Positions 3,397 through 63,431 of a DNA stretch of 64,000 nucleotides are shown here, in pieces; within the stretch, counting starts at the first letter, position 1; each line of letters opens with the position of its first letter. The translations under genes and the position numbers were made by a program. The stretch is taken from positions 626 to 64,625 of the forward strand of contig CAZDVP010000001.1 of the NCBI GenBank assembly GCA_964508865.1, in the 5' to 3' direction. Source of the stretch: an uncultured Bacteroides sp. (GTDB lineage: Bacteria > Bacteroidota > Bacteroidia > Bacteroidales > Muribaculaceae). Below the pieces are notes generated by a model. The model made no database searches. It was not told where the DNA came from and worked only from the letters and a program-made list of their open reading frames with translations.

Positions 3397-3702
3397 ATGG
3401 GAAACGTAATGAAATGTCGGCTTTGTAGTTATGTGGGCCAAAAATTAAAGAAACTGTATGCTCATCAACTTATCCATTTCCCGGAACTTGCTCCCGAAGA
3501 ACTGGAGAGGAATATGAGCAAATACTATTCCGTGTATCATAGGTCCAAACGAGCTACTGAACCGACATCTCATCCAGTAAAGAATGATCCAATGTCAATC
3601 CACATTGCCTCCTCACGGGTAAAACAAGTTTATCCGAAATTCAGCACTGAGGGCGGCATGGCAAACGATGACTACCAATATGGTCTCAGTGAAAAAGATT
3701 AG
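3397..3702 (+). CDS. small C2H2-like zinc-finger protein
   Basis: MGNVMKCRLCSYVGQKLKKLYAHQLIH. The first ATG follows the promoter box; the track ORF starts at 3355. Confidence 0.5.
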   Translation: MGNVMKCRLCSYVGQKLKKLYAHQLIHFPELAPEELERNMSKYYSVYHRSKRATEPTSHPVKNDPMSIHIASSRVKQVYPKFSTEGGMANDDYQYGLSEKD

Positions 3703-6858: not shown

Positions 6859-8049
6859 TTATCGACGAGGACGGCGATTCTTATTGATTTCACGCATCAG
6901 TTTTCGTGCCTCGCTCTGCTTGGCCCACTCACGCTTGGTCTCTTCGTAGTTGAAGTTGTTATACTTCAAGAACTCTTTCAGGAGGCCGAGCATTTCGTAA
7001 CCATAGTCGTTCACACCACGATTGACAAGTTCAGTAGCCTTGCGCTCCAGTGCGGCAAGCGACTCTTCCTGCTGAATGAAGTGACGTACATCTCGGTAGG
7101 AGCGGATGCAAGTGTCACCACTTGCGTTGACTTGCAACAGGCAGTTCTCGAAGAGGATTAAGTCCTTGATTGTGTAGTATGCGCCGGCAGCTTTGTATGC
7201 GTTCATAAACGAAGGACACATTTCCGGATAGTAGACGATACCTCGACGAAGTGCACTGAACTTCTGAACCGCAGCATAAAGAGTCTTAGGGAGTTTGGAG
7301 ACGGATATTGTCCGGATTGCAGTTTCAAGCGTTTTGTAGAATGAGAGAAGTTCATCGGTATGGATGCCTTTGCCATTGTTCATCCAATTGCAACGCAGTT
7401 TGACATATTTGCGACCCTTGTGATTACGTTGAGGCATATTCTCGATATACTTCTTCAGACTGCTGAGGAAGTGGTTTGCCATATCAAGAGCGATGGTCTT
7501 GTTGTACCAGCGATTACGGTCTTCGTAACCCTCGGTGTCGTTGTCAGCCGCCATCTTCTGCTGACGCTTCAGGTCGTTGAGAAGAACATCCCAGCTGTAG
7601 TCGTAGCCCTTGCGCTTCAGCATATCGTGAAAACCGACTGTGAGATTGCGACGGCCCTCCTTGTAGAAGAGCATCTGGAGACACTGTGAAGGAATCCAGC
7701 GGCGGACAATGCCCTCGACTTCGATGTAGCCGTCTGCCTCGATTTTATCAATGAGGCCGGCGATGATACGAGCGGCATTAGGAGACGAGAGGGCGGCAGA
7801 GAGTGTCTCCTCAATGCTTGATGCTCCAGAGACAGGAACACGATCGGTGCAGTGAACCGAGGTACAAGCGAGACCGCTGGGTTCAGTGGGAAGCACGACC
7901 GTTCCGAGGCCGCTATCCTTGCCGATAGCCATACCAGACACCGGGTGCTGGTTAGCCGGGATGATGATTTCTGCGCCACAGTTGGAGCAGATTACTTTGG
8001 TTGTAGACTGAGTGTTGTTCATACGATTTGATGATTTCTTTGTTGCCAT
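6859..8049 (-). CDS. hypothetical protein with N-terminal zinc ribbon
   Basis: 396-aa ORF with CSNCGAEIIIP near the N-terminus and a basic C-terminal tail. I recognise no family. Confidence 0.65.
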   Translation of the reverse strand: MATKKSSNRMNNTQSTTKVICSNCGAEIIIPANQHPVSGMAIGKDSGLGTVVLPTEPSGLACTSVHCTDRVPVSGASSIEETLSAALSSPNAARIIAGLIDKIEADGYIEVEGIVRRWIPSQCLQMLFYKEGRRNLTVGFHDMLKRKGYDYSWDVLLNDLKRQQKMAADNDTEGYEDRNRWYNKTIALDMANHFLSSLKKYIENMPQRNHKGRKYVKLRCNWMNNGKGIHTDELLSFYKTLETAIRTISVSKLPKTLYAAVQKFSALRRGIVYYPEMCPSFMNAYKAAGAYYTIKDLILFENCLLQVNASGDTCIRSYRDVRHFIQQEESLAALERKATELVNRGVNDYGYEMLGLLKEFLKYNNFNYEETKREWAKQSEARKLMREINKNRRPRR

Positions 8050-8091: not shown

Positions 8092-8544
8092 TTAGAACCA
8101 GTCCTTTCTGAGGATGAAGGATTTGTCAGTTCCCTGATAGAACCAGTCCTTTGCGAAGAGTTCTTCCGGATTGAACGATCCGTTCAGAAGTGAAAGGAGA
8201 ATGAAGACCTCCAGTTCGGCCTGAGCGACATCTCTTGACTTGGGGTTGTTGAGGGCATCGTGGCCGCACTCCTTTATGAGTTCCGACACTGACAATGCTT
8301 TGAATTTTGCAGTTCGCTCTTTGGCCATTGATGATTTAGTCGGTCGGCTGTACTTGTATGTGTCATACAGATTTTCAACCTCATCCAGCCAAACATCTAA
8401 ATCCGGATGCACAGGGATTCCATACGGTGTTTTGGTTAGATCCACCACCTTTCCGTCGATTATTAGACTTCGTTTCTTGAAGTCTACCCGAAAGCGAGAA
8501 CCTTTGCTCACTTTCTCAATTACATTTTCGTATATTGTGCTCAT
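8092..8544 (-). CDS. hypothetical protein
   Basis: 150-aa ORF with no recognisable motif. Confidence 0.6.
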   Translation of the reverse strand: MSTIYENVIEKVSKGSRFRVDFKKRSLIIDGKVVDLTKTPYGIPVHPDLDVWLDEVENLYDTYKYSRPTKSSMAKERTAKFKALSVSELIKECGHDALNNPKSRDVAQAELEVFILLSLLNGSFNPEELFAKDWFYQGTDKSFILRKDWF

Positions 8545-8604
8545 TGTTAAGAAGTTTTCAAATTAGTTGCTCATCCCGTCGTCACATAAATTTAATTCTT
8601 CCAT

Positions 8605-8699
8605 GATATACCGGCTGAGGTCAGGTCCCGAAGTGTGCAGGACTCGAAAGTCATTCGAGTCGAAACACTTCGTGTCCCTGAGTTGAAAGCCGGTAGATC
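8605..8699 (+). ncRNA. structured module B1 (long interrupted hairpin)
   Basis: Stems GAT.TACCGGCT/AGCCGGTA.ATC, TCAGG/CCTGA, CGAAGTGT/ACACTTCG and GACTCGAA-agtca-TTCGAGTC. A CATAAA box lies 14 nt upstream. Confidence 0.4.
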
Positions 8700-8785
8700 T
8701 AAATAGTCGGGCCTTGCAACTGTTTAGGCTGTGCTACCGTTTGGACTTTCGCACTGGATTGTACGTCACTGTAAATTTGCCAATT

Positions 8786-8874
8786 CATACTGTAGGAGCA
8801 AGCTCCGGCGGCTGAAGGCTTCCAGGAAGTAAGTCCTGGAAGGCGGGGCCGAGGAGCTGGATTGCAACAGTATG
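8786..8874 (+). ncRNA. structured module B2 (long interrupted hairpin)
   Basis: Stems CATACTGT/ACAGTATG, AGCTCC/GGAGCT and GGCTTCCAGGA/TCCTGGAAGGC. It is preceded by TAAATTTG (an exact TAnnTTTG match) and TTCATA. Confidence 0.4.
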
Positions 8875-8957
8875 ACTAAAGTTTCCAGTCTTGATAGCCC
8901 TCTTCGTATGTTCTTGATTTCTCATAGTTTGTAACGCATTTATATAATCTTGTAAAT

Positions 8958-9014
8958 CTATTACCTGTAAGACCACGGTAATATCTCCCACTACCTGTGT
9001 ATTACAGGTAATAG
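8958..9014 (+). ncRNA. structured module B3
   Basis: An 11-bp stem CTATTACCTGT/ACAGGTAATAG, or alternatively two sub-hairpins. It is preceded by TATATAATCTTGT. Confidence 0.3.
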
Positions 9015-9110
9015 TAAAAAGGGAAACTCTTTGAAATCAAGTGCTGCATTGCATAACATTGATTGTTAATGGTGTCACAAACATGGCGCATTGATATAAT
9101 CTGTTCATAG

Positions 9111-9188
9111 GATCCAGTTTAAGAACTTCTGAAGGGCTGGTAGTCATCCAGCCATTCAGAAGTATCTCAGTACACGGCGAACTGGATC
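9111..9188 (+). ncRNA. structured module B4 (paralog of A1)
   Basis: Stems GATCCAGTT/AACTGGATC, ACTTCTGAA/TTCAGAAGT and GGCTGG-tagtcat-CCAGCC. It shares GATCCAG-N8-CTTCTGAA with A1 and is preceded by GATATAATCTGTTCATA. Confidence 0.45.
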
Positions 9189-9290
9189 TTAAATTGAAGT
9201 TTGCCCTCACCATTGTTCATGCGCTTGATAAAGATGGTTCAATTTACGGACTTGGCACGTTGCTGAAATCATCTCATGTGGCCACGAGAA

Positions 9291-9354
9291 GTCTGAATCG
9301 ACGGGACTTGGAACGCCGACAGCAATCGGCGTGGAACGTCCCGTCGATTTGGAT
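9291..9354 (+). ncRNA. structured module B5 (could double as RT terminator)
   Basis: A 12-bp stem AATCGACGGGAC/GTCCCGTCGATT and a 7-bp stem ACGCCGA/TCGGCGT. The outer extension GTCTG/TTGGA(T) needs G.U pairs that work only on the plus strand. Confidence 0.35.
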
Positions 9355-9401
9355 TATTCTCGTGTACCTAAATGTGTCCGTCTCATCTGAACCTGTCGTG
9401 C

Positions 9402-10721
9402 TTAAATATCTCTGACAATTGAATCGTAAAGGTCACGGCCATACAAGAGATTGTTTCTCATACACCCAAGAGAATAAAAGCCTTCGATACGTTCTCCAGT
9501 CTTTTCTCTTAAAGTGCGAATCTTTCGACCCTTACCACGAGCAATGCAACCCTCTTTGCTGGTCTTTACCCAACCGAGACCGCCGATGTCGTTCATGCCT
9601 ACTGATTTCCCAACCTTCACTGCCCTCAGACAGTCAAGTACAAATCCGTTCAATGTGTCAATGTCAGACTTTACATTGATAGTCTTCAGAACACCGGTAG
9701 CCCAGGAGTATTGTCCGTCTCCATAATAGAGCCAAGACTGAACTGAGTGCAAAGCAGTCTGGAATTTGATACCAGTTCGTATTTTTGAGATAGTACGTGA
9801 TGTAACCTCCTTGACGAATGATTTTATTCGATTACTGCTCAGACTGATATTGGCTCCCTTGATTGAGAAGCCGAGGAACTTGAACCAATGGTCATTGTCT
9901 ATGTACTCGACCTTTTTGGGATTGAGTCTCATATCCATTTCCTCCAGTGTTGAAACCAAGACCTCCATTGCTTTCTCATATTCCTTTCCGATGAATAAAA
10001 TGTCATCTGAATACCGGACATAATACCCTCCAGCCTTGCCTCCGTAATTATCGTTAATGACCTTATCGAGGTGGTAAAGAATCGTATCGGCCAACCAGGA
10101 GGCAACAGCGCACCCTTGTTTAAGGCTCTGATAGTGTGTCACCTCTTCTTTAAGTTCGCTGTCATAGAAGAGGTCGAGGTGGTAATACTCCCGGACAATA
10201 TCAATTATTAGGGATTTCCCATATACTTTTTCAATAGCGTCAAACTTAGAGTCAATGTAGCGAATAGGAACCGAGTCAAAATATTTACTCAGGTCGGCTT
10301 TCCATCCGATTATATTATGAGAGACCCCACTTAACTTGTCAATCATCTGACTGGCGTGGGTCACGATTTTGGCACACCCAATTCCTTTTTGATAAGATGT
10401 ACACTGAGGGTGAATCCAACCTCCAGTGGAAGCGGTGAGATCAAAAAGTAGATCGTTGACGATAGAGAGAAACACCCTGTCTCTATCGTTGTTGATGAAT
10501 ACAGTGCGAAACTCGCCCGGAACATCTTTGGGGATTTTGGCGGTGTGAGGACGTTCAATATGATAATTGCCGGACACAATCTCTGCCAGCAAATTCTTAC
10601 GCCCATTGGGAGACATAAGGTCTCTAAGCACCGCCTGACTGATTCCTTTGAAAGCCCCTTTGTTGAGAGCATCCTCCCAACGTTTCTTTTCAAAGAACAT
10701 TTCTAATATCTTGTCTTCCAT
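9402..10721 (-). CDS. reverse transcriptase, non-DGR type (class unassigned)
   Basis: 439 aa with RT motifs IPKDVPGEFRTVF, KADLSKYFDSV, LKQGCAVASWLAD, YVRYSDDILFIG (YxDD), LNPKK and FKFLGFSI. It lacks the DGR-type [LIV]GxxxSQ signature. Confidence 0.85.
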   Translation of the reverse strand: MEDKILEMFFEKKRWEDALNKGAFKGISQAVLRDLMSPNGRKNLLAEIVSGNYHIERPHTAKIPKDVPGEFRTVFINNDRDRVFLSIVNDLLFDLTASTGGWIHPQCTSYQKGIGCAKIVTHASQMIDKLSGVSHNIIGWKADLSKYFDSVPIRYIDSKFDAIEKVYGKSLIIDIVREYYHLDLFYDSELKEEVTHYQSLKQGCAVASWLADTILYHLDKVINDNYGGKAGGYYVRYSDDILFIGKEYEKAMEVLVSTLEEMDMRLNPKKVEYIDNDHWFKFLGFSIKGANISLSSNRIKSFVKEVTSRTISKIRTGIKFQTALHSVQSWLYYGDGQYSWATGVLKTINVKSDIDTLNGFVLDCLRAVKVGKSVGMNDIGGLGWVKTSKEGCIARGKGRKIRTLREKTGERIEGFYSLGCMRNNLLYGRDLYDSIVRDI

Positions 10722-11731: not shown

Positions 11732-13378
11732 TTATGCGGTTAATTGAAGTTGGTTAGCGATATATTCCATCTCAGAGTAAGCGATGGAGTGGCACCCTGC
11801 GGTGAGGATGTCATTGCGATAAGAAGTGATCGTCCAGTGATCGTCAACTGCACGGCAAATTTCACGAGTGAACTCGGCAGCGTTTTCATGCCATCTCTTG
11901 ACAAGAGACCATAGACGTTTACATTCTTCGATAGTGATTTTGATGCCCTTAGAGGTTTCTACGATAGCACCCTTGATGCGGAGTAAAACATTGCCTCCAT
12001 AGAAGACACTGGGGCTTCCTGTGTTGTAGAGTTTGAAACCTTCGTGATACAACTGACGGACACCTTCCGGGGTCTTTTTCAGTTCGTCGATGTATTCTCG
12101 CTTAGATGCTTCAAGTTCTTCGTAACGTCTCCGTTCTTCTTCGACCTCTCTCCAGTGCTGATCCCAATGAGCACGAGCTTCTTCATGCTGGCGTGTCTCT
12201 TCCTGGAAGCCTTCCAGAACCTCTTGACGCTTGTTGATGACCCACTGACGCTGCTGTTCGAGCGGAAGAGAACAATATGTCTGATACTCTTCATAAGTCA
12301 GACGTTTTTCTCTGTGCCATGAGCAGAAGTGGAAAACGGTGCCGTTGAAGTTGAAGGAAGTTGGCAGATTGTTACGGAATGGACTGAGAGAATCATGTGG
12401 CATCCAGCCTCTCATTCCCAGATGTTTCTCCAGCCGCTCTTTCGCTTTCTCACAAGCAACTTGACGAGCTGCTACTAAGTTAGCGGTGTAGGCTGATTTA
12501 ACATTGGTCTGGCGAAGATTGTACAGCCATTGTATGTAATCACCCTTCTTTTTGTGCTGAGTGATAGATTTCTTGTTGATTGGGTTGTCGGTCACAACTG
12601 GAGAAACCATTCCATGAACAGTCGGCCTTACCATTTCTCCCCTCCAGCCTGGACCCTTAACAAATACCAATGAGCGGAGGCGGCGAGTCTTCTCTGCGTT
12701 TTTCAGAGGCTCGATGCGTTTTTGATAATCGGCCCATGTACCCTCTCCGTTAACCATGTCAACGATAGCCTCAATCGGATCGTTGTCAAGCATCATCTGG
12801 AGGAATTTGCGAACTCGCTTATCTACCTGCTTGTAGGTGCAGTTAATACTCCGCATATATGGAATATGCGTCCTGAAGTCATCGAACTTCATTCGGAGAA
12901 GTTTCTTGACAGTCATGCACCCAGTGACGTTAAACCAGCGGACCATTTCCTCATAACCCTTACGAGAGAAAGGGTGACTGAGAGCATTGCAATCGGGAAC
13001 GAGTAGACAATGACTGTATTCCTCCATCAGGTATCTCATTCCGAACTCTATCAAAGCCTTATTGCGTTGTTCTTTAGTCTGTCCGTGATAGAAGGAGATA
13101 ATACGATACGAACCTCTTTCGTGGCCTTTGAAATTGAATATCTCCTTAGCTATGTCGTTGGGAATCGCGCTTCTGACCCAACCTTGATGGCCAGAGGTCG
13201 TATTGCTGTAACTTGCAGTGTCCAGCAGAAATAGTACCTTGCCGTTGATCTCAATTCGCTGTCCGATGCAGGTGCTGTATGAATATATACAGCCATCATC
13301 GTGACTCATGTGAGACGAGTTGTGCGCCTTGTCGAGATTGTGCGCCCAAGCATGGGCAACCGATGAATAATCACTCAT
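11732..13378 (-). CDS. hypothetical protein
   Basis: 548-aa ORF. The N-terminus reads AHAWAHN...SYSTCIG...SNTTSGHQGW and the centre is a charged coiled-coil. I cannot name a family with confidence. Confidence 0.65.
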   Translation of the reverse strand: MSDYSSVAHAWAHNLDKAHNSSHMSHDDGCIYSYSTCIGQRIEINGKVLFLLDTASYSNTTSGHQGWVRSAIPNDIAKEIFNFKGHERGSYRIISFYHGQTKEQRNKALIEFGMRYLMEEYSHCLLVPDCNALSHPFSRKGYEEMVRWFNVTGCMTVKKLLRMKFDDFRTHIPYMRSINCTYKQVDKRVRKFLQMMLDNDPIEAIVDMVNGEGTWADYQKRIEPLKNAEKTRRLRSLVFVKGPGWRGEMVRPTVHGMVSPVVTDNPINKKSITQHKKKGDYIQWLYNLRQTNVKSAYTANLVAARQVACEKAKERLEKHLGMRGWMPHDSLSPFRNNLPTSFNFNGTVFHFCSWHREKRLTYEEYQTYCSLPLEQQRQWVINKRQEVLEGFQEETRQHEEARAHWDQHWREVEEERRRYEELEASKREYIDELKKTPEGVRQLYHEGFKLYNTGSPSVFYGGNVLLRIKGAIVETSKGIKITIEECKRLWSLVKRWHENAAEFTREICRAVDDHWTITSYRNDILTAGCHSIAYSEMEYIANQLQLTA

Positions 13379-54755: not shown

Positions 54756-57700
54756 ATGGCTAAAAAAGCAATTGCAGTAAAAGGTTACATCCCTGACATC
54801 AGCACTCCCTGGGAGTGGATAGATGAGAATGGGCAATTGAAAGCCTATGATGGAGAGTCTGTAGAGAACTTGCTACGGCGTGTTATTTCTGACTTGCAGA
54901 CCACCAAAGTAGGTTATTTCGTCATTCCTCAAAATAAGGAAACTGACGGATATTATCACTTATGGGGATTTGCCAGTCAAAGCGATTACAGCGATTATCT
55001 TACTGATCCTGTTAGTAACGCTTCGCTACGTCTGCTTAACACTGCAATTCCGATTTTGGAGGAGCAGGGAGGAGTCAGCAATATCGTTACTCTGACTCGA
55101 AACTCAGCGGCAAGTATCGTTACCAGCAAAGCAGAGGCAAGCGTAGAGGTATCATATCTGTGGCAACAGTACAATCCTATTACTAAGGAAACTACAGACC
55201 AGGATGAAGATGCCACTATCATTGTATCTTGCCGAACACAAAATGCAAATGGCACATGGGGAGCGTGGGATTCCAGTAAGGAGTTTACCGTCTCTATCCA
55301 ATCTGGACAGACTAAGACCATCGACCTAAGTAAATTGCTGACTTCTGACGCAACTTATCAGATTCGTTTGGTTGCAACCGGTGAAACAAGCGAGATTTCT
55401 GCCAGCCCTGTAACTGTAAGCATTGTGTATTCAAACGTGGCGGCAAAGTATGAAGGCCAGATTGCAACCGCTTATCAAGGCAGTAGCATCCAGCTTCCTT
55501 TCCGTATTTCAGGTAGCGTACAAAAGCAGCTTAGAATCAAAATTGGTAACTATACCAAAAACTTCACACTTGGCACTACGACTTATACCGATAATACGTA
55601 TGGTGCTACTTTGACTCAGGCTGAATTTGGACTAACTCGTGGGGCTGTCAAGGCTGAAGCATGGATCGCGTTTGGTGAAGGATATGCTGCTGAAACGGAG
55701 CATCAAGAGTTTCAGTTTATTTACCTCCCTGAGAATGACACCATCACTACTCCTATTTTGGCTGTCACGGACATCATGGAGGAATTTCAGAACTGGACCC
55801 GTGCAACGATTTTCAGATATGCCATATACAATCCGCAGTCTGACGAAACATTCTTACGCATAACCCTTCAGGATCGCACAACAGGTCAAATCTACATCCA
55901 AAAGGATATAACCTGTATGAATGGTGAAAGTTATGAGTTTGACGAGAACTTCGGCATGGAGTATGAAGGAGATGAGCAGCCTACTACTATTCAGGCCCAG
56001 GCTACCTTTGTCAACGCCTCCGGCCTGACTTATGGTAACAATATTAACTTCACTGTTGACAATTCAGAGAACTTTGCTCCAACAAAAGGCGCAAATTTGA
56101 TTCTTTCGCCTGAAAAACATAGTCTTGTTATTGATGGCGAGGATTACGACGTTGCTGATCTTATCACTGACAAAGATGATACCAACAGCGGATGGAAGAC
56201 AAATACTGAGTTTGATTCAACCGGAGCGCAAGTCAATGTACCTGTCCTCAGTATTGCTGCCGGCAACAAACTGACGATTCCGTATGAACTTTTCAATTCA
56301 AATACCGGCCACAACAACAATGGTGTCGAAGGTTCGATTACGATAGAATTTGACATAAAAGTAAAAAATATCGTAAGTAACGCTCCAATCATTGACGCTT
56401 CAGCACCCTTTGACAAGGCGTACACCGGATTGAAGTTCTACCCGACAAGAGCAGTGTGTCTTAGCCAGAATAATAATTCAGAGGATATTTGCGATGCGAC
56501 TTTCTGTGAAGAGACACGTGAGCACATAGCGATTAACATTATCCGCAATCTTCGTGGTGAAGGATTGAATCTGGTTCGTTTCTACATCAATGGTAAATCG
56601 AACCGTTCATACATTTACACTGATGAGGATAATTTCATACCTATCGGTGCAAATGGCGCACAAAATCTTGTTATTGGCTCTGATGATGCCGATATTGATA
56701 TTTATGGATTGCGTGTTTATAAAGATCAGCAGCTTGGCTCCGTTCAGATTCAGAATGACTATATGGCTGGTATGCCGACCATTGAAGATAAGAAAAAGTT
56801 CAAACGTTTCAATTCAATCTACAACGGTACGGAAATCAGTTACGACCAGTGTAATGCGATGGGTCTTAACACGATTCTTCGTAAAATTCCACAGGGCGGT
56901 CATTATCCTTCTCGTGAAAATCAGGACAAACAGAAGAACGTTACCATAGATGTTCGTATCTTCAAAGAACGTGGTAATGCTGAAAGTCTTGACCGTAAGC
57001 ATAGTGGCACATTTGTAGGTATGACCGATAAAGGTCAGGGAACCAGCGCGAAAGGTTACTATTGGTGGAATATCTCTGATGGCTTTGAAGATGACGTAGA
57101 GATAGCTGCCGACGCATACGACCCCTCAGATCCTACCCATTACACAGCTGATGGTAAATATTTCAAAAAGATTTCGTACTTCAATTCATTAGACGGTATC
57201 AGTCAGGTTTATGCAAGCAAGTATGAAATCGAGGATGGCCGAGGGGGAATAACTAAACTGGTTGGTAAGTGTAATTACGCTTCTCCCATGCAGAGCCATA
57301 AATTAGGAGGCGTTTGGGCTTACGATGAACTTTGGCAACTTCTTGTTAACGATGGTTCCGGCGGTCGTACCGTGCTTCAAGATACTCATGCCGCTTGTTA
57401 TGAACTGCCCTTCCTTTGCTTTTATCAAATAGGCAATGGTACTCCTATATTCTGTGGATTCCAGACTTGGGGTAGCGGCAAAGGCGATAAAAAGACCTTT
57501 GGCTACGACAAGAAGAAATCCCCAGGATATATGTGTGTGTCCGGAGCGGATAATGGTGCCGTTGCTGCTCTATTCCAAATGCCTTGGTTGGTAAGCAAAA
57601 ACACTCAGGGCGCATGGAGCGGCAATGTCTACGCTAAGAGCGTGACAATCAATACCGGTGACGTTAAGAATGGATATTGTTATAAGAGCGGTGTCAGTGA

Positions 57701-60700
57701 CAACCTTGCGTTTGAGGTTGAGATAGGTAGCAAATATGATGGCGGAGAGACCGATAAAGGGGTTCTCCGAATCGCAGATGAAGCAAAAGGAGAAACCGAG
57801 ACAACTCTTTATACTCATTTTGCTGATTTCTGTAATTTCATCTGCTCTTGTTCACCGTTACTGAAACCGTATGCAGGCACTGAGGCTCAACTCATTGCTG
57901 ATAGTGCCAATCTTAAAAATGATCATCAGTATTGGTTGTTTAATACCGGGCCGGATCGTTATAAAGTTTACTACTACAATCCTCTGACCGCTAAGTTTGA
58001 ACAGCTTCCAAAGGTTGCTACAAAATGGGGCGCAGATGGTCGTGCGTCTCAATTTGGTTCTCCTACTTTAACGTCACAGTTGGCTGGTGTAACCGTTACC
58101 ATTGACTCTGTTGAAGGTAAGACAAGCATGACATTAGAAGAGGCAATGGACACGCTTGGTACGTCAGATATGAATGTAGTTAACGACCTCTTCTGTAAGG
58201 CTCGTGTAGCATACTTCAAAGCTCATGCTGATAGTTACCTCGATGTTGTCGATGTAATCTTCCACCAGTGCTTCTGTAAATTGTTCGGAGCGACTGATAA
58301 TCGCACCAAGAATACTTATTACTGGATAGACCCGGCAATAGATAAACTTGTACGTCTGAAGCAGGATGACCTTGACACAATTCTGGCTACCGATAACCAG
58401 GGCCGTCAGACTAAGCCTTACTATGTGCTCGAACATACTAAGGATAGTAACGGCAGCAACTACTGGAATGGTGAAAACAATATCCTGTACACTCTGATTG
58501 AACGTGCATATCCTGATCGTATGCGTAACATGATGCGTGATATATTCTCCAGAATGTCTCAGATTGCAGGCAGCGTGGAGGAATATATGCAGAAGCGTTT
58601 CTACTGGGTGCAGGAATATTTCCCTGCTGTAGCCTACAACGAGACCAGTCGTGTACTTTATGAGGTGGCTCAGGTGAAATTGATGAACGGCCTCATTGAT
58701 GTCAGTCAAGACCCGATTACTCAGGCTGTGGGAGATCAGCTGGAGTGCGAAAAGCAGTTCATGTCACAGCGTCTTCCTATGCTGATGTCATGGTGTGAAT
58801 ATGAAACGGGTGGTGATGGAACCCTATCTTTCCGTTCCGTAGACACACTTGATGGCTCTCAGGCGGTTTACGACCTCGAATATACGGCTTATCAATACAT
58901 TTATCCGAAAATGTCTCTTGGTGGCGCAATGCCTTCAATTTATGCCAAGGTAAATGGAGAATGGGTTTTACAGGACGGTAGTGAACCATATCTATGCGCT
59001 CCTGGTGAAACGGTGCGAATGGTGGTTACAGCCAGTGTGTCCAATCAGCAATTTACCTTACGTTGGCTGCATTATGCACAACGGATTGGTAATATTGGAG
59101 CACTCTCTTGTGGAGATGAGGGTTCTATTACGATTGTTGGTAAAAGACTTCGTAAACTGGAATGTTGGTCTCCTGATGGCACTCCTATTGAGTTTCATCC
59201 TAAAGGCATTTCAATTTTGAACTGTCGCAATCTGGAAGAAGTCAACTTGACCAACGCTTCTTCTTTCTCCGGCGGCTTTTCTTTTGATTTGCCTCGACTA
59301 AAGAAACTGTTGCTCAAAGGGTCTGCCTACACCAGCGTAACATTGCCTAAAACCTCTACCTTAACACAAGTCTCATATCCGGCATCTATTAACTCGATTA
59401 TCGTAAATGGTCAGCCGAACCTGAGTAGTATTTCTGTAGAGAGCATGGCGAATGTTCGTACACTGAGGGTGATCGGACAGCACAAGATTCAGACCCAGAC
59501 TCAGCCTCTCGTGCAACTTGCATATTCTCAGGGGCAGAATGTTAATTCTGTAACTATGGAGAATATCGCATGGGTCGGTATGTCTGTGAACGTATTGATT
59601 TGGCTTCAGAATATGAAGGCGAGTCTTACCGGGTCAATTGGTTTGTCTGATAATTTGACTTATGCGACAAAGGCATCGTTGGTAGAAACTTATGGTGATA
59701 TTGACAGTCAGACTAATGATTTGTATGTAACTTACAATAAATACAACATCACCGGCTTCAATATTAAGGGTAACACCTATATGTCTCAACTTGGATTATA
59801 TCCCTATACGATTGCTCCTGTGCCGACACGAGGTAACGATGTGGCTATCAAAAATGGCAAACTCGATATAGAATGGTCAATAGAAGAAGGTGGTCAAATA
59901 TATGCAACCTTTGAAGATGCAGTGGCCGGCTTGTTGAAAGTCTCACAGCTGGATGCAAGTGGTACCGACACTCGCTATGCTATCACTTGTAAATTGACCC
60001 GAACTAATGGCCAGACTATTACCAATTCTGTTCAAGTTGGATTCTACCTTCGAGTTCCTAAAATCGGAGACTTTGCTTATGCAGATGGTACCTTCGATGA
60101 CCAGTTCCAGCGAGACAAGACGGTTGTAGGCGTGGTGTACAAGATCGACCCGATGTATCAAGGCGAAGGTGATGAAGCACCTACCACTTACTCCGGTTAT
60201 AACAAGCCTACAAATGCAGTGCTTGAAAATAAGCAGCTTGTTGGCTATAGAGTGCTGATTGACAGCAAAGAAGATGCGGTAATTAAAAGCACTGATTCTT
60301 TCATCAATACAGCAAGTAATGCTTGGGGTCTTTATAATGAAGGCTCAACTGGAGTACATGGAACGAATGGTTTTACTACTGAGATGGGCAATAAGATTCA
60401 GGCTCAAATAGGTAGTAATGCTTTCGACACTCCGATTCCGAATATTGGAAACACGAGCGAATGGTCATCCGGTTGGTATTTGCATCGAGGCACCTACTTC
60501 AATAGTGAGGAATCCGATGGGTTCAAACAGTTCTCATCTGGTGCCCCAGCAGACTGGGATGGTAAAAACAAAACCCGGAAGATTGTACGTCACATGGAAA
60601 GTATCTTCAATGGTTATCTGATGGGTGAGTTCAACGAGGACATTCTTACAGAATGGGTTGAAGAGACTGAGAATGGCAATATCGTTCATCAGATTACTGA

Positions 60701-61358
60701 ACTTCCTACAAATCTGGAAGAGTTAGGCAATATGATGGAGATCCTTCAGAAAGCAAATGGAAATCTTTCTATTTTCCGTCAGTTTGCTTTCCCTGCTGCC
60801 TACTCCTGCTATCTCTATGAACCTGTGCTGAAAGAAGGCGAAACACTTGATCCTCAGTTTGCACGTAACAACTGGTACCTCCCGGCAGAGGGTGAATTGA
60901 TGCGTCAATTCTCTTTCTATGGTGTATCTCGCACTGGTGGCTTAGGAACGGCGCAAGCAACCGGTCAGAACACTCAGCCAAATAGAAGTGTGATTGACGC
61001 AATGATTCAGGCGGCGCACGACTCATCGGAAAGCAATCCGATTAAGCAGACTGTTAAGCAATCAAGTATTGATGCTTCCAGTTATTCTGCTGCTGAAATG
61101 TCTGCTATCAATCAGTATTTCCAGACATTGACTGAATGTGAAATGCCGATTTACTCTCTTGTGCTATGGAGAGCATTGGTTGGGGGCAATTCTTCGCCCT
61201 TTATCAATCATACAGCTGGGTACCATTGGTCGAGTAGCGAGAACAGTAGCAACGGCTCCTGGTACGTGAGTTTCGGTACTGGTAACACGTACTACTACAA
61301 CAACAAGTATGGCTACTATACGGTTCGTCCCTCTGTAGCGTATGTTTTCATGCTTTAA
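54756..61358 (+). CDS. giant tail fibre / receptor-binding protein, DGR target 1
   Basis: 2200 aa. The C-terminal DUF1566/C-type-lectin-like module (NNWYLPAEGELMRQF...GYHWSSSENSSNGSWYVSFGTGNTYYYNNKYGYYTVRPSVA) is encoded by VR1. Confidence 0.85.
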   Translation: MAKKAIAVKGYIPDISTPWEWIDENGQLKAYDGESVENLLRRVISDLQTTKVGYFVIPQNKETDGYYHLWGFASQSDYSDYLTDPVSNASLRLLNTAIPILEEQGGVSNIVTLTRNSAASIVTSKAEASVEVSYLWQQYNPITKETTDQDEDATIIVSCRTQNANGTWGAWDSSKEFTVSIQSGQTKTIDLSKLLTSDATYQIRLVATGETSEISASPVTVSIVYSNVAAKYEGQIATAYQGSSIQLPFRISGSVQKQLRIKIGNYTKNFTLGTTTYTDNTYGATLTQAEFGLTRGAVKAEAWIAFGEGYAAETEHQEFQFIYLPENDTITTPILAVTDIMEEFQNWTRATIFRYAIYNPQSDETFLRITLQDRTTGQIYIQKDITCMNGESYEFDENFGMEYEGDEQPTTIQAQATFVNASGLTYGNNINFTVDNSENFAPTKGANLILSPEKHSLVIDGEDYDVADLITDKDDTNSGWKTNTEFDSTGAQVNVPVLSIAAGNKLTIPYELFNSNTGHNNNGVEGSITIEFDIKVKNIVSNAPIIDASAPFDKAYTGLKFYPTRAVCLSQNNNSEDICDATFCEETREHIAINIIRNLRGEGLNLVRFYINGKSNRSYIYTDEDNFIPIGANGAQNLVIGSDDADIDIYGLRVYKDQQLGSVQIQNDYMAGMPTIEDKKKFKRFNSIYNGTEISYDQCNAMGLNTILRKIPQGGHYPSRENQDKQKNVTIDVRIFKERGNAESLDRKHSGTFVGMTDKGQGTSAKGYYWWNISDGFEDDVEIAADAYDPSDPTHYTADGKYFKKISYFNSLDGISQVYASKYEIEDGRGGITKLVGKCNYASPMQSHKLGGVWAYDELWQLLVNDGSGGRTVLQDTHAACYELPFLCFYQIGNGTPIFCGFQTWGSGKGDKKTFGYDKKKSPGYMCVSGADNGAVAALFQMPWLVSKNTQGAWSGNVYAKSVTINTGDVKNGYCYKSGVSDNLAFEVEIGSKYDGGETDKGVLRIADEAKGETETTLYTHFADFCNFICSCSPLLKPYAGTEAQLIADSANLKNDHQYWLFNTGPDRYKVYYYNPLTAKFEQLPKVATKWGADGRASQFGSPTLTSQLAGVTVTIDSVEGKTSMTLEEAMDTLGTSDMNVVNDLFCKARVAYFKAHADSYLDVVDVIFHQCFCKLFGATDNRTKNTYYWIDPAIDKLVRLKQDDLDTILATDNQGRQTKPYYVLEHTKDSNGSNYWNGENNILYTLIERAYPDRMRNMMRDIFSRMSQIAGSVEEYMQKRFYWVQEYFPAVAYNETSRVLYEVAQVKLMNGLIDVSQDPITQAVGDQLECEKQFMSQRLPMLMSWCEYETGGDGTLSFRSVDTLDGSQAVYDLEYTAYQYIYPKMSLGGAMPSIYAKVNGEWVLQDGSEPYLCAPGETVRMVVTASVSNQQFTLRWLHYAQRIGNIGALSCGDEGSITIVGKRLRKLECWSPDGTPIEFHPKGISILNCRNLEEVNLTNASSFSGGFSFDLPRLKKLLLKGSAYTSVTLPKTSTLTQVSYPASINSIIVNGQPNLSSISVESMANVRTLRVIGQHKIQTQTQPLVQLAYSQGQNVNSVTMENIAWVGMSVNVLIWLQNMKASLTGSIGLSDNLTYATKASLVETYGDIDSQTNDLYVTYNKYNITGFNIKGNTYMSQLGLYPYTIAPVPTRGNDVAIKNGKLDIEWSIEEGGQIYATFEDAVAGLLKVSQLDASGTDTRYAITCKLTRTNGQTITNSVQVGFYLRVPKIGDFAYADGTFDDQFQRDKTVVGVVYKIDPMYQGEGDEAPTTYSGYNKPTNAVLENKQLVGYRVLIDSKEDAVIKSTDSFINTASNAWGLYNEGSTGVHGTNGFTTEMGNKIQAQIGSNAFDTPIPNIGNTSEWSSGWYLHRGTYFNSEESDGFKQFSSGAPADWDGKNKTRKIVRHMESIFNGYLMGEFNEDILTEWVEETENGNIVHQITELPTNLEELGNMMEILQKANGNLSIFRQFAFPAAYSCYLYEPVLKEGETLDPQFARNNWYLPAEGELMRQFSFYGVSRTGGLGTAQATGQNTQPNRSVIDAMIQAAHDSSESNPIKQTVKQSSIDASSYSAAEMSAINQYFQTLTECEMPIYSLVLWRALVGGNSSPFINHTAGYHWSSSENSSNGSWYVSFGTGNTYYYNNKYGYYTVRPSVAYVFML
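61209..61340 (+). repeat. DGR variable repeat VR1
   Basis: Hand alignment of 132 nt against TR 62070..62201 gives 14 differences, all at adenines of the TR. Confidence 0.9.
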
Positions 61359-61366
61359 TCCTCTCT

Positions 61367-61392
61367 GGCGAGTTGCCTTTTGGCAACTCGCC
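61367..61392 (+). promoter_or_regulatory. GC-rich hairpin 3' of VR1 (DGR target-recognition-type element and/or terminator)
   Basis: An 11-bp stem ggcgagttgcc/ggcaactcgcc with loop TTTT, 26 nt after the end of VR1. Confidence 0.6.
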
Positions 61393-61417
61393 TATAACCC
61401 TTAAAATAAATTTAATA

Positions 61418-61963
61418 ATGTTAAATAAATCAAACGAAAAGTCTCCTACGGAGAAGGCTTTAGAGTCTCACGCATCTATAACCGGAATATTTGAAGAGGT
61501 AGAATTTCTTCCCTCTGAAGATACAGTTGTGCTTACACAGGCAGAAATTGACGCTGCCAAAAAGAATAAACGAGATATGCGTAAAAAGGCTAAAACCTTT
61601 GTAAATGCCCCAATATATCGAACATTCCACAACGCTACATCTCTACTTATGCAAATCATCACACTCATGCCTAAAAAGACGGTCAAACTGAGTGATGTAA
61701 TGCTGATAAAATTGAATGATGCGATTCAATGGACTGCATCGGCTTATGAACAAAAAGATCCGATTCATAAACATTATTCGCTCTGTGAGGCTATATCTTT
61801 AATGTACAGCATTAAGGTGTACGCAAATTCAGCTTCAAGTCTAAATCTCATCGGCAAGAGCAAGTCTACTCAACTGAGCAAAGCGATTGACGCTATTTTA
61901 CGCCAACTTGTAGCATGGCGAGGCTCATTGATAGATAAGGGCGATAATGCTTGCGATCAATAA
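61418..61963 (+). CDS. avd: Avd-like DGR accessory protein with N-terminal extension
   Basis: The helical basic C-terminal half (LMPKKTVKLSDV...AIDAILRQLVAWRGS) fits the four-helix-bundle Avd pattern. It sits between the target gene and the TR/RT. The ATG is at 61418; the track's TTG at 61373 lies inside the hairpin. Confidence 0.6.
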   Translation: MLNKSNEKSPTEKALESHASITGIFEEVEFLPSEDTVVLTQAEIDAAKKNKRDMRKKAKTFVNAPIYRTFHNATSLLMQIITLMPKKTVKLSDVMLIKLNDAIQWTASAYEQKDPIHKHYSLCEAISLMYSIKVYANSASSLNLIGKSKSTQLSKAIDAILRQLVAWRGSLIDKGDNACDQ

Positions 61964-63431
61964 TCAATACATTATCGGAATGTCTGAGTTTCTGATTTCA
62001 TACGGGCGGCATACTCCGTATCATAATGTCAATATGGTTAGGAGTTACGAAGATGCAATGCCGCAAACACAAACAGCTGGGAACCATTGGTCGAGTAGCG
62101 AGAACAGTAGCAACAACTCCTGGAACGTGAATTTCGGAACTGGTAACACGAACAACAACAACAACAAGTATAACAACTATACGGTTCGTCCCTCTGTAGC
62201 ACATGAGTCAGATGAGTGGATAGCTCTCAGGGAAACCCTGCAAATTGCTTTTAAGGATTGCTGTAGAGGAAAAACAAGCAGCAAGCAATGCCAGGAATAT
62301 ATCCCTATTGCCGATGAGGACTTGGATGCTTTAACAACAGAACTACTTGAAAGGCGATATAAGCCGGACACATCTACTTGTTTTCTTGTCAAGTTTCCCA
62401 AATTACGAGAAGTCTTTGCCGCTGCTTTTCGTGATCGCATTATCCATCATTGGCTTTGCCTCAGATTAGAACCACTATTTGAACGTCTTTGCCGTCAACA
62501 AGGTAATGTGACACATAATTGCCGGAAAGGGTATGGCACTAAGACCGCTGTTGAGCAAGCTGCCAAAGGGATTAAAAAAGTCACTGGAAATTATCATAAG
62601 GAAGGCTGGATTTTCAAGGGTGATTTGGTCGGTTTCTTTATGTCGATCGACCAATATAAGATGTGTAAACGGTTATTGAAATTTGCCGAGACACATTATA
62701 ATGGCGATTTTAAGGAGTTACTATTGTGGCTTCTTGAAGTAGTAGTGATGCACCGGCCCGAAAAGAATTGCCTTCTCAATTCCGACCCTCGTGATTTCAT
62801 CTTTCTCCAGGCTAATAAATCTCTTCATCGTTGCGCTCCCGGAAAAGGTATGCCAATTGGAAACTTGACCACACAGTTATTCGCTAATTTCTATATGGCG
62901 GAATTTGATGGGTTTGTCGTAAAGTGCCTCAGAGCCTATCAGCGTAAGAATCGTGGTTTCAAATGGTCATACACCAGGTTTGTGGATGATTACATTATTA
63001 CTTGCAATGATAAAAAGTTCCTGTTGTGGTTTATTGAGCAGTGTGCCGCTAAACTTAACGAGATGGGCTTGAAACAGCACAAGAATAAACGGTATATCCA
63101 ACCTGCTAATCATGGAGTTATGTTTGTCGGGAAATATATACACAACGGAAGAATTTATTTGAGCAACAGAACACTTTCGAGGTTTAGAGAGAAAGTTCAT
63201 GGATATACCTTGTACCTCCAGAAACCTGAAGAAGAGATTACCTTTATGGAGTTGGATCATATTCGAGCCACCATCAACTCATATTTGGGTTTTTGTAAAG
63301 GTTGTCAGACATACAAATTTCGTAGGGAGATTCTCCGTGAGTTCTTTCTAAAATGCGAGAAATATTTTTACCATGATAAAAACTGGTCTAAAATCAAACT
63401 GAGAAGAAAATACACCACTATTTGTAAATAA
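61947..63431 (+). CDS. DGR reverse transcriptase (ORF includes the TR in its 5' part)
   Basis: Contains FPKLREVFAAAFRDRIIHHWL, GDLVGFFMSID, PIGNLTTQLFANFY (the DGR signature IGxxxSQ-like motif) and YTRFVDDYII. There is no in-frame ATG, GTG or TTG between the TR end and the conserved RT N-terminus. Confidence 0.85.
   Translation: MLAINNQYIIGMSEFLISYGRHTPYHNVNMVRSYEDAMPQTQTAGNHWSSSENSSNNSWNVNFGTGNTNNNNNKYNNYTVRPSVAHESDEWIALRETLQIAFKDCCRGKTSSKQCQEYIPIADEDLDALTTELLERRYKPDTSTCFLVKFPKLREVFAAAFRDRIIHHWLCLRLEPLFERLCRQQGNVTHNCRKGYGTKTAVEQAAKGIKKVTGNYHKEGWIFKGDLVGFFMSIDQYKMCKRLLKFAETHYNGDFKELLLWLLEVVVMHRPEKNCLLNSDPRDFIFLQANKSLHRCAPGKGMPIGNLTTQLFANFYMAEFDGFVVKCLRAYQRKNRGFKWSYTRFVDDYIITCNDKKFLLWFIEQCAAKLNEMGLKQHKNKRYIQPANHGVMFVGKYIHNGRIYLSNRTLSRFREKVHGYTLYLQKPEEEITFMELDHIRATINSYLGFCKGCQTYKFRREILREFFLKCEKYFYHDKNWSKIKLRRKYTTICK
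62070..62201 (+). repeat. DGR template repeat (TR)
   Basis: In the frame matching the VRs it carries 13 AAC codons and 1 AAT codon. It is the donor sequence for both VR1 and VR2. Confidence 0.9.

Follow-up and report, generated by a model that had tools for sequence, protein, structure and literature searches.

A five-domain structured non-coding tract downstream of a UG27 reverse transcriptase gene in a gut phage, and its possible role as a partner of the enzyme

The UG27 locus and its genes

The window analyzed here is a stretch of 64,000 nucleotides (nt) (GenBank assembly GCA_964508865.1, contig CAZDVP010000001.1, positions 626 to 64,625 of the forward strand), and its portal, protease, tail sheath, and tape-measure genes identify it as DNA of a tailed phage. 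All of the called genes between 400 and 21193 lie on the minus strand, except for one open reading frame (ORF) of 101 amino acids (aa) at 3397-3702. Among them is a reverse transcriptase (RT) gene at 9402-10721 (minus strand, 439 aa), and the subject of this report is the ORF-free, structured tract of 857 bases that follows it on the same strand at 8545-9401, bounded by the stop codon of the RT gene (9402) and the next start codon (8544). The RT belongs to the UG27 group: it matches the PADLOC model RT_UG27 over its full length (E = 5.2e-174), the second-best model being UG26 (E = 1e-25), and it also matches Pfam RVT_1 (E = 8.6e-19). The catalytic YSDD motif is intact, and Y237, S238, D239, and D240 are invariant or nearly so among 24 homologues.

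Downstream of the RT gene and the tract are the two genes associated with UG27, both on the minus strand: the cluster 346 gene (8092-8544, 150 aa; PADLOC RTas346, E = 1.6e-31) and then the cluster 337 gene (6859-8049, 396 aa; PADLOC RTas337, E = 1.2e-60). The same gene order is seen in related loci. A three-gene UG27 system composed of the RT and clusters 346 and 337 has been described (Mestre et al., NAR 2022, PMC9226505); it occurs mostly in predicted gut phages of Bacteroidetes and Firmicutes, is common among human-gut phage genomes, and shows no enrichment in defence islands. In the same study a putative conserved non-coding RNA (ncRNA) "with three long stem-loops" was predicted between the UG27 RT and the next cluster, and the element was found to have spread with the RT over several phage families. 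In its RT group, both downstream genes, the intergenic position of its structured region, and its gut-phage setting, the locus agrees with that description and is a UG27 system.

A non-coding tract with five long hairpins

Comparison of the reading frames among relatives revealed no conserved ORF in 8545-9401, in agreement with a first-pass annotation that had called the tract non-coding from the sequence alone. The longest minus-strand ORF in the tract (9037-9213, 58 aa) is truncated or startless in 7 of 11 relatives (L001, L167, L002, L169, L083-85), and even where it is present its sequence is poorly conserved. The five long hairpins of that annotation, B1 to B5, proved to be real: each folds where it had been placed, with a minimum free energy (MFE) of -22 to -49 kcal/mol and a z-score of -5.1 to -8.2, and none of 200 dinucleotide shuffles folded as well. 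This is true of both strands, and the entire tract likewise folds well on either (z = -8.6 for the minus and -8.9 for the plus strand). The check list of the same annotation spoke of eight modules, at odds with the five that it described. Its view that the hairpins are not simple terminators also held, as no terminator-like site (a GC-rich stem followed by a U run) was found on either strand within the tract. A search of Rfam at gathering and at permissive thresholds gave no credible match (best E = 0.37).

A 16-nt exact match was noticed between 8814-8829, in the 3' arm of B2, and 12199-12214, where it is the reverse complement of a site in a 548-aa gene; the sense RNA of the tract would be complementary to the mRNA of that gene at this point. 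The match is kept (17 nt) in L163 and is absent from L001, L167, and L002, and is probably due to chance.

Covariation and the domain plan

The fold of the tract is backed by covariation. A 12-sequence alignment of related tracts (A3) gave an RNAalifold consensus of 187 pairs, which was compared with slid controls and 500 shuffles. Pairing is possible in 87.1% of the cells of the consensus pairs, compared with 34-40% in the slid controls; two-sided changes occur in 106 of the pairs, compared with 24-39. The covariation score is 0.39 against at most 0.10 in the controls, and none of the 500 shuffles scored as high. When the 54 long-range pairs are taken alone, 95.5% of the cells are paired (27-42% in the controls), 30 of the 54 pairs change on both sides (1-6 in the controls), and the score is 0.418 against at most 0.077. 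The tract is thus shown to be a conserved non-coding chain of five folded domains, here named D5 to D1 in the order in which they follow the RT gene.

Domains D4, D3, D2, and D1 are built on one plan. In the RT sense, each runs from a first pseudoknot strand (PKa) through the 5' strand of a closing helix, a long variable hairpin, an A/U box, and a second pseudoknot strand (PKb) to the 3' strand of the closing helix. The A/U box is a conserved single-stranded box with an invariant UUAnA, or UUAnA(G), and the pairing of PKa with PKb crosses the closing helix, giving a pseudoknot topology. Together these two helices form the clamp of the hairpin. All of the domains are given here on the minus strand, and a position s counted in the RT sense corresponds to window position 9402 - s.

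The domain nearest to the RT gene, D5 (9232-9401), contains B5 as an extended hairpin at 9280-9368, compared with 9291-9354 in the first-pass annotation. B5 is extended by a covarying Watson-Crick helix, CACGAG/CUCGUG, and enclosed by a helix between ACGGA (9377-9381) and UCCGU (9246-9250); consensus helices 2-6 of this domain covary. D4 (9068-9224) may serve as an example of the common plan. Its PKa, GCGCAU at 9219-9224 (s178-183), pairs with PKb, AUGCGC at 9086-9091 (s311-316), and its closing helix joins 9199-9214 to 9068-9082, AAUGGUG..CAAAC (s188-203) pairing with GUUUG..CACCAUU (s320-334). Between these strands lie hairpin B4 (9111-9188) and the A/U box AUUAUAU (9094-9100). Long-range helices 1-3, which belong to D4, are 97-99% paired and change on both sides in 12 of 19 pairs.

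In D3 (8914-9050), PKa AAUGCA (9045-9050) and PKb UGCGUU (8933-8938) flank hairpin B3 (8958-9014) and an A/U box at 8942-8948, and the closing strands are UUGAUUUC (9033-9040) and GAAAUCAA (8914-8921). These form long-range helices 4-5, in which sense-strand U.G and G.U intermediates are found in the window sequence and in L169. D2 (8754-8908) has PKa UACG (8905-8908), closing strands CUGGA (8884-8888) and UCCAG (8754-8758), hairpin B2 (8786-8874), the A/U box AAAUUUA (8772-8778), and PKb CGUA (8762-8765); its helices 6-7 change on both sides in 7 of 9 pairs. In D1 (8566-8733), PKa CACA (8730-8733) pairs with PKb UGUG (8583-8586), hairpin B1 occupies 8609-8695, the A/U box is AAUUAAAUUUA (8587-8597), and the closing strands GUUGCAAGG (8712-8720) and GAUGAGCAAC (8566-8575) form long-range helix 9, where both sides change in 5 of 9 pairs and one sense-strand G.U is invariant. 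A spacer of 21 nt separates the end of D1 from the cluster 346 start codon.

Two short motifs that had been pointed out as shared features of the hairpins can be placed in this plan. CTGGATY does recur, with four copies in the tract and TGGATT at 9349, at a frequency that across the window is at the level of chance (21 found, 19.3 expected). As a motif in its own right it was rejected, the traced copies being helix strands: 9111 and 9182 form the base of B4, 8754 lies in the closing helix of B2, and 8857 in an arm of B2. AGTCA is indeed present in the loops of both B1 and B4, and it is conserved only in B1.

Relatives of the tract

In all, 170 related loci were retrieved, and relatives come from pig and human gut metagenome assemblies. 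No match was obtained when the locus was compared by megablast with 50,697 phage records, a single-protein scan of viral contigs found no close relative, and an alignment-based scan was needed to obtain the relatives. An ORF-free gap follows the RT gene in the loci examined, which bears out the earlier suggestion that the tract is tied to the RT; its length is about 200-880 nt where a homologue of cluster 346 can be placed. The gap measures 814-882 nt in relatives whose RT is 70% or more identical, about 536 nt in a group at 68%, and about 206 nt in L005 and L006. In a human-gut group at 55-56% about 1300 nt are non-coding, with up to about 1600 nt to the cluster 346 gene. Among close relatives the conservation of the tract equals that of the genes on either side (88 vs. 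90%, and 81 vs. 80%), and farther out it diverges faster than they do (50 vs. 69%).

The number of hairpins varies with the clade. L005/L006 have a single hairpin, the 68% group has three or four, and the window has five; the human-gut group has at least eight, as does Bacteroides phage BS-TP1. The tract of L005 consists of a D2-type domain only, and D2 may be called the core, since the minimal tract of 206 nt in L005/L006 still retains it. The 68% group lacks D5, its tract beginning at D4. The distant human-gut group (56%) shows the same clamp architecture in its first domain. A junction motif, WTAKAKNNWYKCR, was found in 275 copies in 178 kb of tracts and in 5 copies on the same strand in 825 kb of flanking sequence.

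BS-TP1, a temperate phage of Bacteroides salyersiae (PQ571274; PMC12694917), is a cultured relative. Its UG27 RT, gp79, is 53% identical to that of the window and is annotated as "tail protein" (L170, PQ571274.1 79351-81962); gp79 is followed by an unannotated gap of 1349 nt with eight or more long hairpins. The host of the phage in the window looks like Bacteroides, because Shine-Dalgarno sites are missing from the gene leaders of the window and because this cultured relative infects B. salyersiae.

The stem of B5, ATCGACGGGAC...GTCCCGTCGAT (window 9296-9349), is identical in the BS-TP1-like phages (L170 5349-5398; L174, L176, L178, and L181). It is thus shared across clades whose RTs are 53% identical, the other hairpins differing completely, and it is missing from the large human-gut group. 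Such sharing between clades could reflect the exchange of cassettes or a sequence-specific role of the stem. In L166, from pig gut, a segment of about 35 nt is replaced just after B2 (alignment A3 columns about 741-772); the replacement removes the 3' pseudoknot strand and a closing strand of D2, and may have arisen naturally or through a chimeric assembly.

The tract is a five-domain element from a pig-gut clade, of the kind predicted in 2022 (Mestre et al., PMC9226505). The published ncRNA was described by three long stem-loops without a mechanism; this clade has five hairpins, and a repeated clamp and a variable number of domains are seen here as well. The clamp-and-pseudoknot plan, the variable domain number, and the sharing of the B5 stem across clades may or may not be new.

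The strand of the tract

Of the two strands of the tract, the RT-sense (minus) strand is the likelier one to be functional. The operon genes are on the minus strand and there is no terminator in the tract, so that a sense RNA must be made; the preference also rests on the adjacent template ncRNAs of the defence-associated reverse transcriptase (DRT) systems DRT2, DRT9, and DRT3 (Mestre et al., 2022, PMC9226505). An answer from wobble statistics was attempted in five ways, with weak and conflicting results. On the side of the sense strand, the long-range helices show sense G.U in 13 pair columns and A.C in 5, the latter at or beside helix ends. In the close group, pairs predicted on both strands have G.U in 47 columns and A.C in 29, and the alifold energy is -231.5 for the sense and -220.3 for the antisense strand. 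At 1x1 mismatches, 23 distinct contexts are G.U and 14 are A.C.

Over the 170 loci the wobble signal is inconsistent among clades: the close clade points to the sense strand, the human-gut clade gives a ratio of about 1:1, and hairpin z-scores point to the antisense strand. Such inconsistency is unusual for a single-stranded functional RNA. Two readings of the wobble counts were considered and dropped. A near-absence of G.U in the stems, as if RNA and cDNA both had to fold, came from counting pairs chosen on both strands (1.4%); the unbiased figure is 5.6-7.4%. A split signature, with scaffold helices sense and hairpins antisense, does not agree with the hairpins of the close group, which also lean to the sense strand.

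A possible partner of the reverse transcriptase

Taken together, these observations make it probable that the tract is a conserved structured non-coding partner of the UG27 RT. The tract would be transcribed on the minus strand within the RT operon, and the operon transcript would fold. The RT would bind the tract RNA, with the conserved clamps and UUAnA boxes positioning the enzyme, and cDNA would be made on the tract, which would act as scaffold and template at once, in the manner of DRT2, DRT9, and DRT10, related systems of class 2 UG/Abi RTs. The payload that is copied would be the hairpins, which evolve fast, and the result would probably be hairpin-shaped single-stranded DNA; the products of clusters 346 and 337 would presumably act together with this DNA or upon it. 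Templating is proposed because class 2 UG/Abi RTs make ncRNA-templated products, in every characterised case from an adjacent ncRNA, and because DRT2 is the nearest solved structure to the UG27 RT (E = 1.6e-5 over about 100 residues). The suggestion in the first-pass annotation of an RNA template or primer for the RT is therefore the part of its interpretation that the family context favours.

Several observations weigh against this interpretation. In the human-gut group of 50 sequences neither G.U nor A.C prevails (55 vs. 60 columns in total, and 17 vs. 16 in long-range pairs), and the alifold energy is lower for the antisense strand (-677 vs. -654). The antisense strand has the better z-score in 75 of 126 non-redundant hairpins (p = 0.05) and the lower MFE in 555 of 842 hairpins, the A-rich sense strand explaining part of this. 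The pseudoknot of D1 (helix 8, CACA/UGUG) is invariant and so gives no covariation signal either way, and the pseudoknot and closing helices could be alternative rather than simultaneous folds. Templating is argued by analogy with relatives whose RT is only distantly similar, as the DRT2 match indicates. DRT2 and DRT9 have their ncRNA upstream and not downstream of the RT gene (Mestre et al., 2022, PMC9226505).

A more elaborate version of the partner hypothesis can be put forward tentatively. The tract may be a tandem array of paralogous cassettes, in which each clamp presents one hairpin and the RT copies from the UUAnA box into a separate hairpin of single-stranded DNA, giving one to eight or more per phage. 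The cassettes would be gained, lost, and exchanged; exchange between phage lineages is suggested because the B5 stem is common to clades with 53% identical RTs. The hairpins might then act during infection, for example as decoys for host defences that sense nucleic acids, as primers, or as regulators. If true, such an array would be a phage-borne, multi-unit analogue of retrons.

UG27 is the one large UG/Abi RT group that lives in phages and not in bacterial defence islands, and with BS-TP1 as a cultured carrier its role can be tested. The map backed by covariation names the nucleotides to mutate, namely those of the clamps, the pseudoknots, the UUAnA boxes, and the variable hairpins. For annotation, the apparently empty gap of 0.2-1.6 kb after a UG27 RT should be treated as a functional element.

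Alternative explanations

The tract might instead be a cis-acting structured part of the operon mRNA, concerned with processing, stability, or translational control of the cluster 346 and 337 genes, and not copied by the RT. Its location inside a co-directional operon and the end of the last helix 21 nt before the next start codon would suit such a function. However, 0.2-1.6 kb of clamped hairpins far exceeds the needs of known leaders, and the element accompanies the RT in several families of phages (PMC9226505). The characterised class 2 UG/Abi RTs all template from an adjacent ncRNA, which further argues against a purely cis-acting role, and we regard this explanation as doubtful.

A reading built on the first-pass annotation takes the hairpins as five separate units on the plus strand, each driven from a -10/-35 promoter of its own and yielding a short hairpin RNA antisense to the operon. 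The A/T boxes on which this was based are all present on the plus strand at a fixed distance from the hairpins: CATAAA at 8585-8590, TAAATTTG at 8772-8779, and TATAAT at 8943-8948 and 9095-9100. The box of B2 lies 6 nt before its hairpin and not 9-14 nt as proposed. The two TATAAT boxes, which stand exactly ahead of B3 and B4, each reach 10/12 as sigma-70-like sites; a [CG]TCA-N17-18-TATAAT spacing occurs three times; hairpin energies and z-scores tilt slightly to the plus strand; and in the window sequence the outer stem of B5 and B2 are more stable on that strand. The four boxes, however, coincide exactly with the four A/U boxes of D1-D4, TATAAT at 9095-9100, for example, being the reverse complement of the D4 box. 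The three "-35"-like positions (two of which are hexamers from the scan), GTCACAAAC before B4, TTTCTCA before B3, and TGCTCA before B1, are strands of covarying long-range helices that pair with the far side of the hairpins, with compensatory changes. A transcript starting downstream of such a promoter would therefore lack the pairing partner of the hairpin's far side.

The boxes are also not conserved as promoters. L163-166, the nearest relatives, are 88% identical over the tract and have TGTAAC or TGTAAT in place of both TATAAT boxes, so that the critical A at the second position of the -10 element is G, and in more distant relatives they read TCTAAT, CTATAT, and similar. The Bacteroides promoter consensus is TTTG/TAnnTTTG, not TTGACA/TATAAT, and in a Bacteroides-like host promoters of the latter type would not be used. 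Boxes of the TAnnTTTG type are not enriched, no copy within the tract, the sole plus-strand one (8772) included, is conserved, and no conserved Bacteroides-type promoter was found on the plus strand of the tract. The argument from B5 was that its outer stem needs three G.U pairs that exist only in plus-strand RNA. This is correct for the window sequence; the outer stem is, however, not kept on either strand in L163 and L001. Because the "-35" strands covary, the second A of the -10 box is lost, the host is Bacteroides-like, and the G.U pairs of B5 are not conserved, the reading of the tract as plus-strand promoter modules is not supported, and plus-strand units of this kind are unlikely. TATAAT-like boxes in UG27 gaps should accordingly not be called promoters.

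That the inverted repeats act at the level of DNA, marking for example an origin of replication, a place of single-strand initiation, or a signal for packaging, is highly improbable. The largely Watson-Crick stems, the equal folding of both strands, and a large group without strand asymmetry in its wobble tolerance would fit such a signal. Against it, covarying helices whose strands are 130-190 nt apart, together with crossing pseudoknots, imply the folding of a long single-stranded molecule; the tract keeps its place between the RT and cluster 346 where the phage backbones are unrelated, which speaks for a connection with the RT rather than with replication; and the tract contains no iterons or long direct repeats. 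Finally, decay of a coding sequence, which the first-pass annotation had named as the finding that would overturn its view, can be dismissed despite the short ORFs of 39-68 aa in the tract, since none of its ORFs keeps its position or frame, indel lengths are not divisible by three, each frame has 7-24 stop codons, and conservation is paired rather than in triplets.

Comparison with other reverse transcriptase systems

Among the defence systems, DRT2, DRT9, and DRT10 (UG2, UG28, and UG17, respectively) likewise combine a single-domain class 2 RT with an adjacent structured template ncRNA. They are bacterial defence systems, whereas UG27 is phage-borne and lacks an association with defence islands (PMC9226505). 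The element described here is modular, spans 0.2-1.6 kb, and lies downstream of the RT, in contrast to the upstream ncRNA of DRT2 and DRT9 (PMC9226505). Membership in these systems was rejected: the window RT matches the models Drt2 (E = 4e-13), Drt9 (E = 8e-14), and UG17 (E = 1e-17) far more weakly than UG27, and the locus is in a phage. The ncRNAs of DRT2, DRT9, and DRT10 are, in addition, shorter single units.

A likeness to the msr-msd of retrons can be seen in the long, fast-evolving, and mostly Watson-Crick hairpin, the flanking duplex clamp, and the short conserved motif next to it; the retron hairpin is copied to give hairpin single-stranded DNA. Unlike a retron, the tract has several units per locus, and no context for a branching G was identified in it. 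The locus is not a retron, as the best retron RT model gives E = 2.9e-9, compared with 5e-174 for UG27, and the element lies downstream of the RT. The likeness is one of possible working and not of membership.

A phage RT with an adjacent non-coding template also recalls the diversity-generating retroelements (DGRs). Membership in this class was rejected as well: a second, diverged copy of the tract is nowhere found in the window, where its repeats go no further than the 16-nt match described above, and the UG27 RT is a separate protein.

Other features of the window

The products of the two downstream genes were modelled with AlphaFold2 (AF2), and the models contribute nothing to the mechanism. 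The cluster 346 protein is modelled with a pLDDT of 92; the model has no neighbour in the PDB (best E = 1.5), and in BFVD there is one viral homologue only, which is uncharacterised. The model of the cluster 337 protein (pLDDT 74) has an N-terminal CxxC, in which C21 and C24 are invariant, followed by a confidently modelled helical domain; a sequence search of the PDB was empty and the AF2 model has no structural neighbour there. PHROGs and Pfam searches gave nothing useful for the neighbouring genes.

The window also contains a complete DGR at 54756-63431 on the plus strand, unrelated to the UG27 RT. Its target gene (54756-61358, 2200 aa) includes the variable repeat at 61209-61344, which is matched by a template repeat of 136 nt at 62070-62205. 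The two repeats are 89% identical, and 14 of the 15 differences fall at adenines of the template repeat. An ORF of 181 aa (61418-61963) occupies the position of Avd, and it is followed by the RT ORF of the DGR at 61947-63431 (RVT_1, E = 3e-10), so that the phage carries two RTs.

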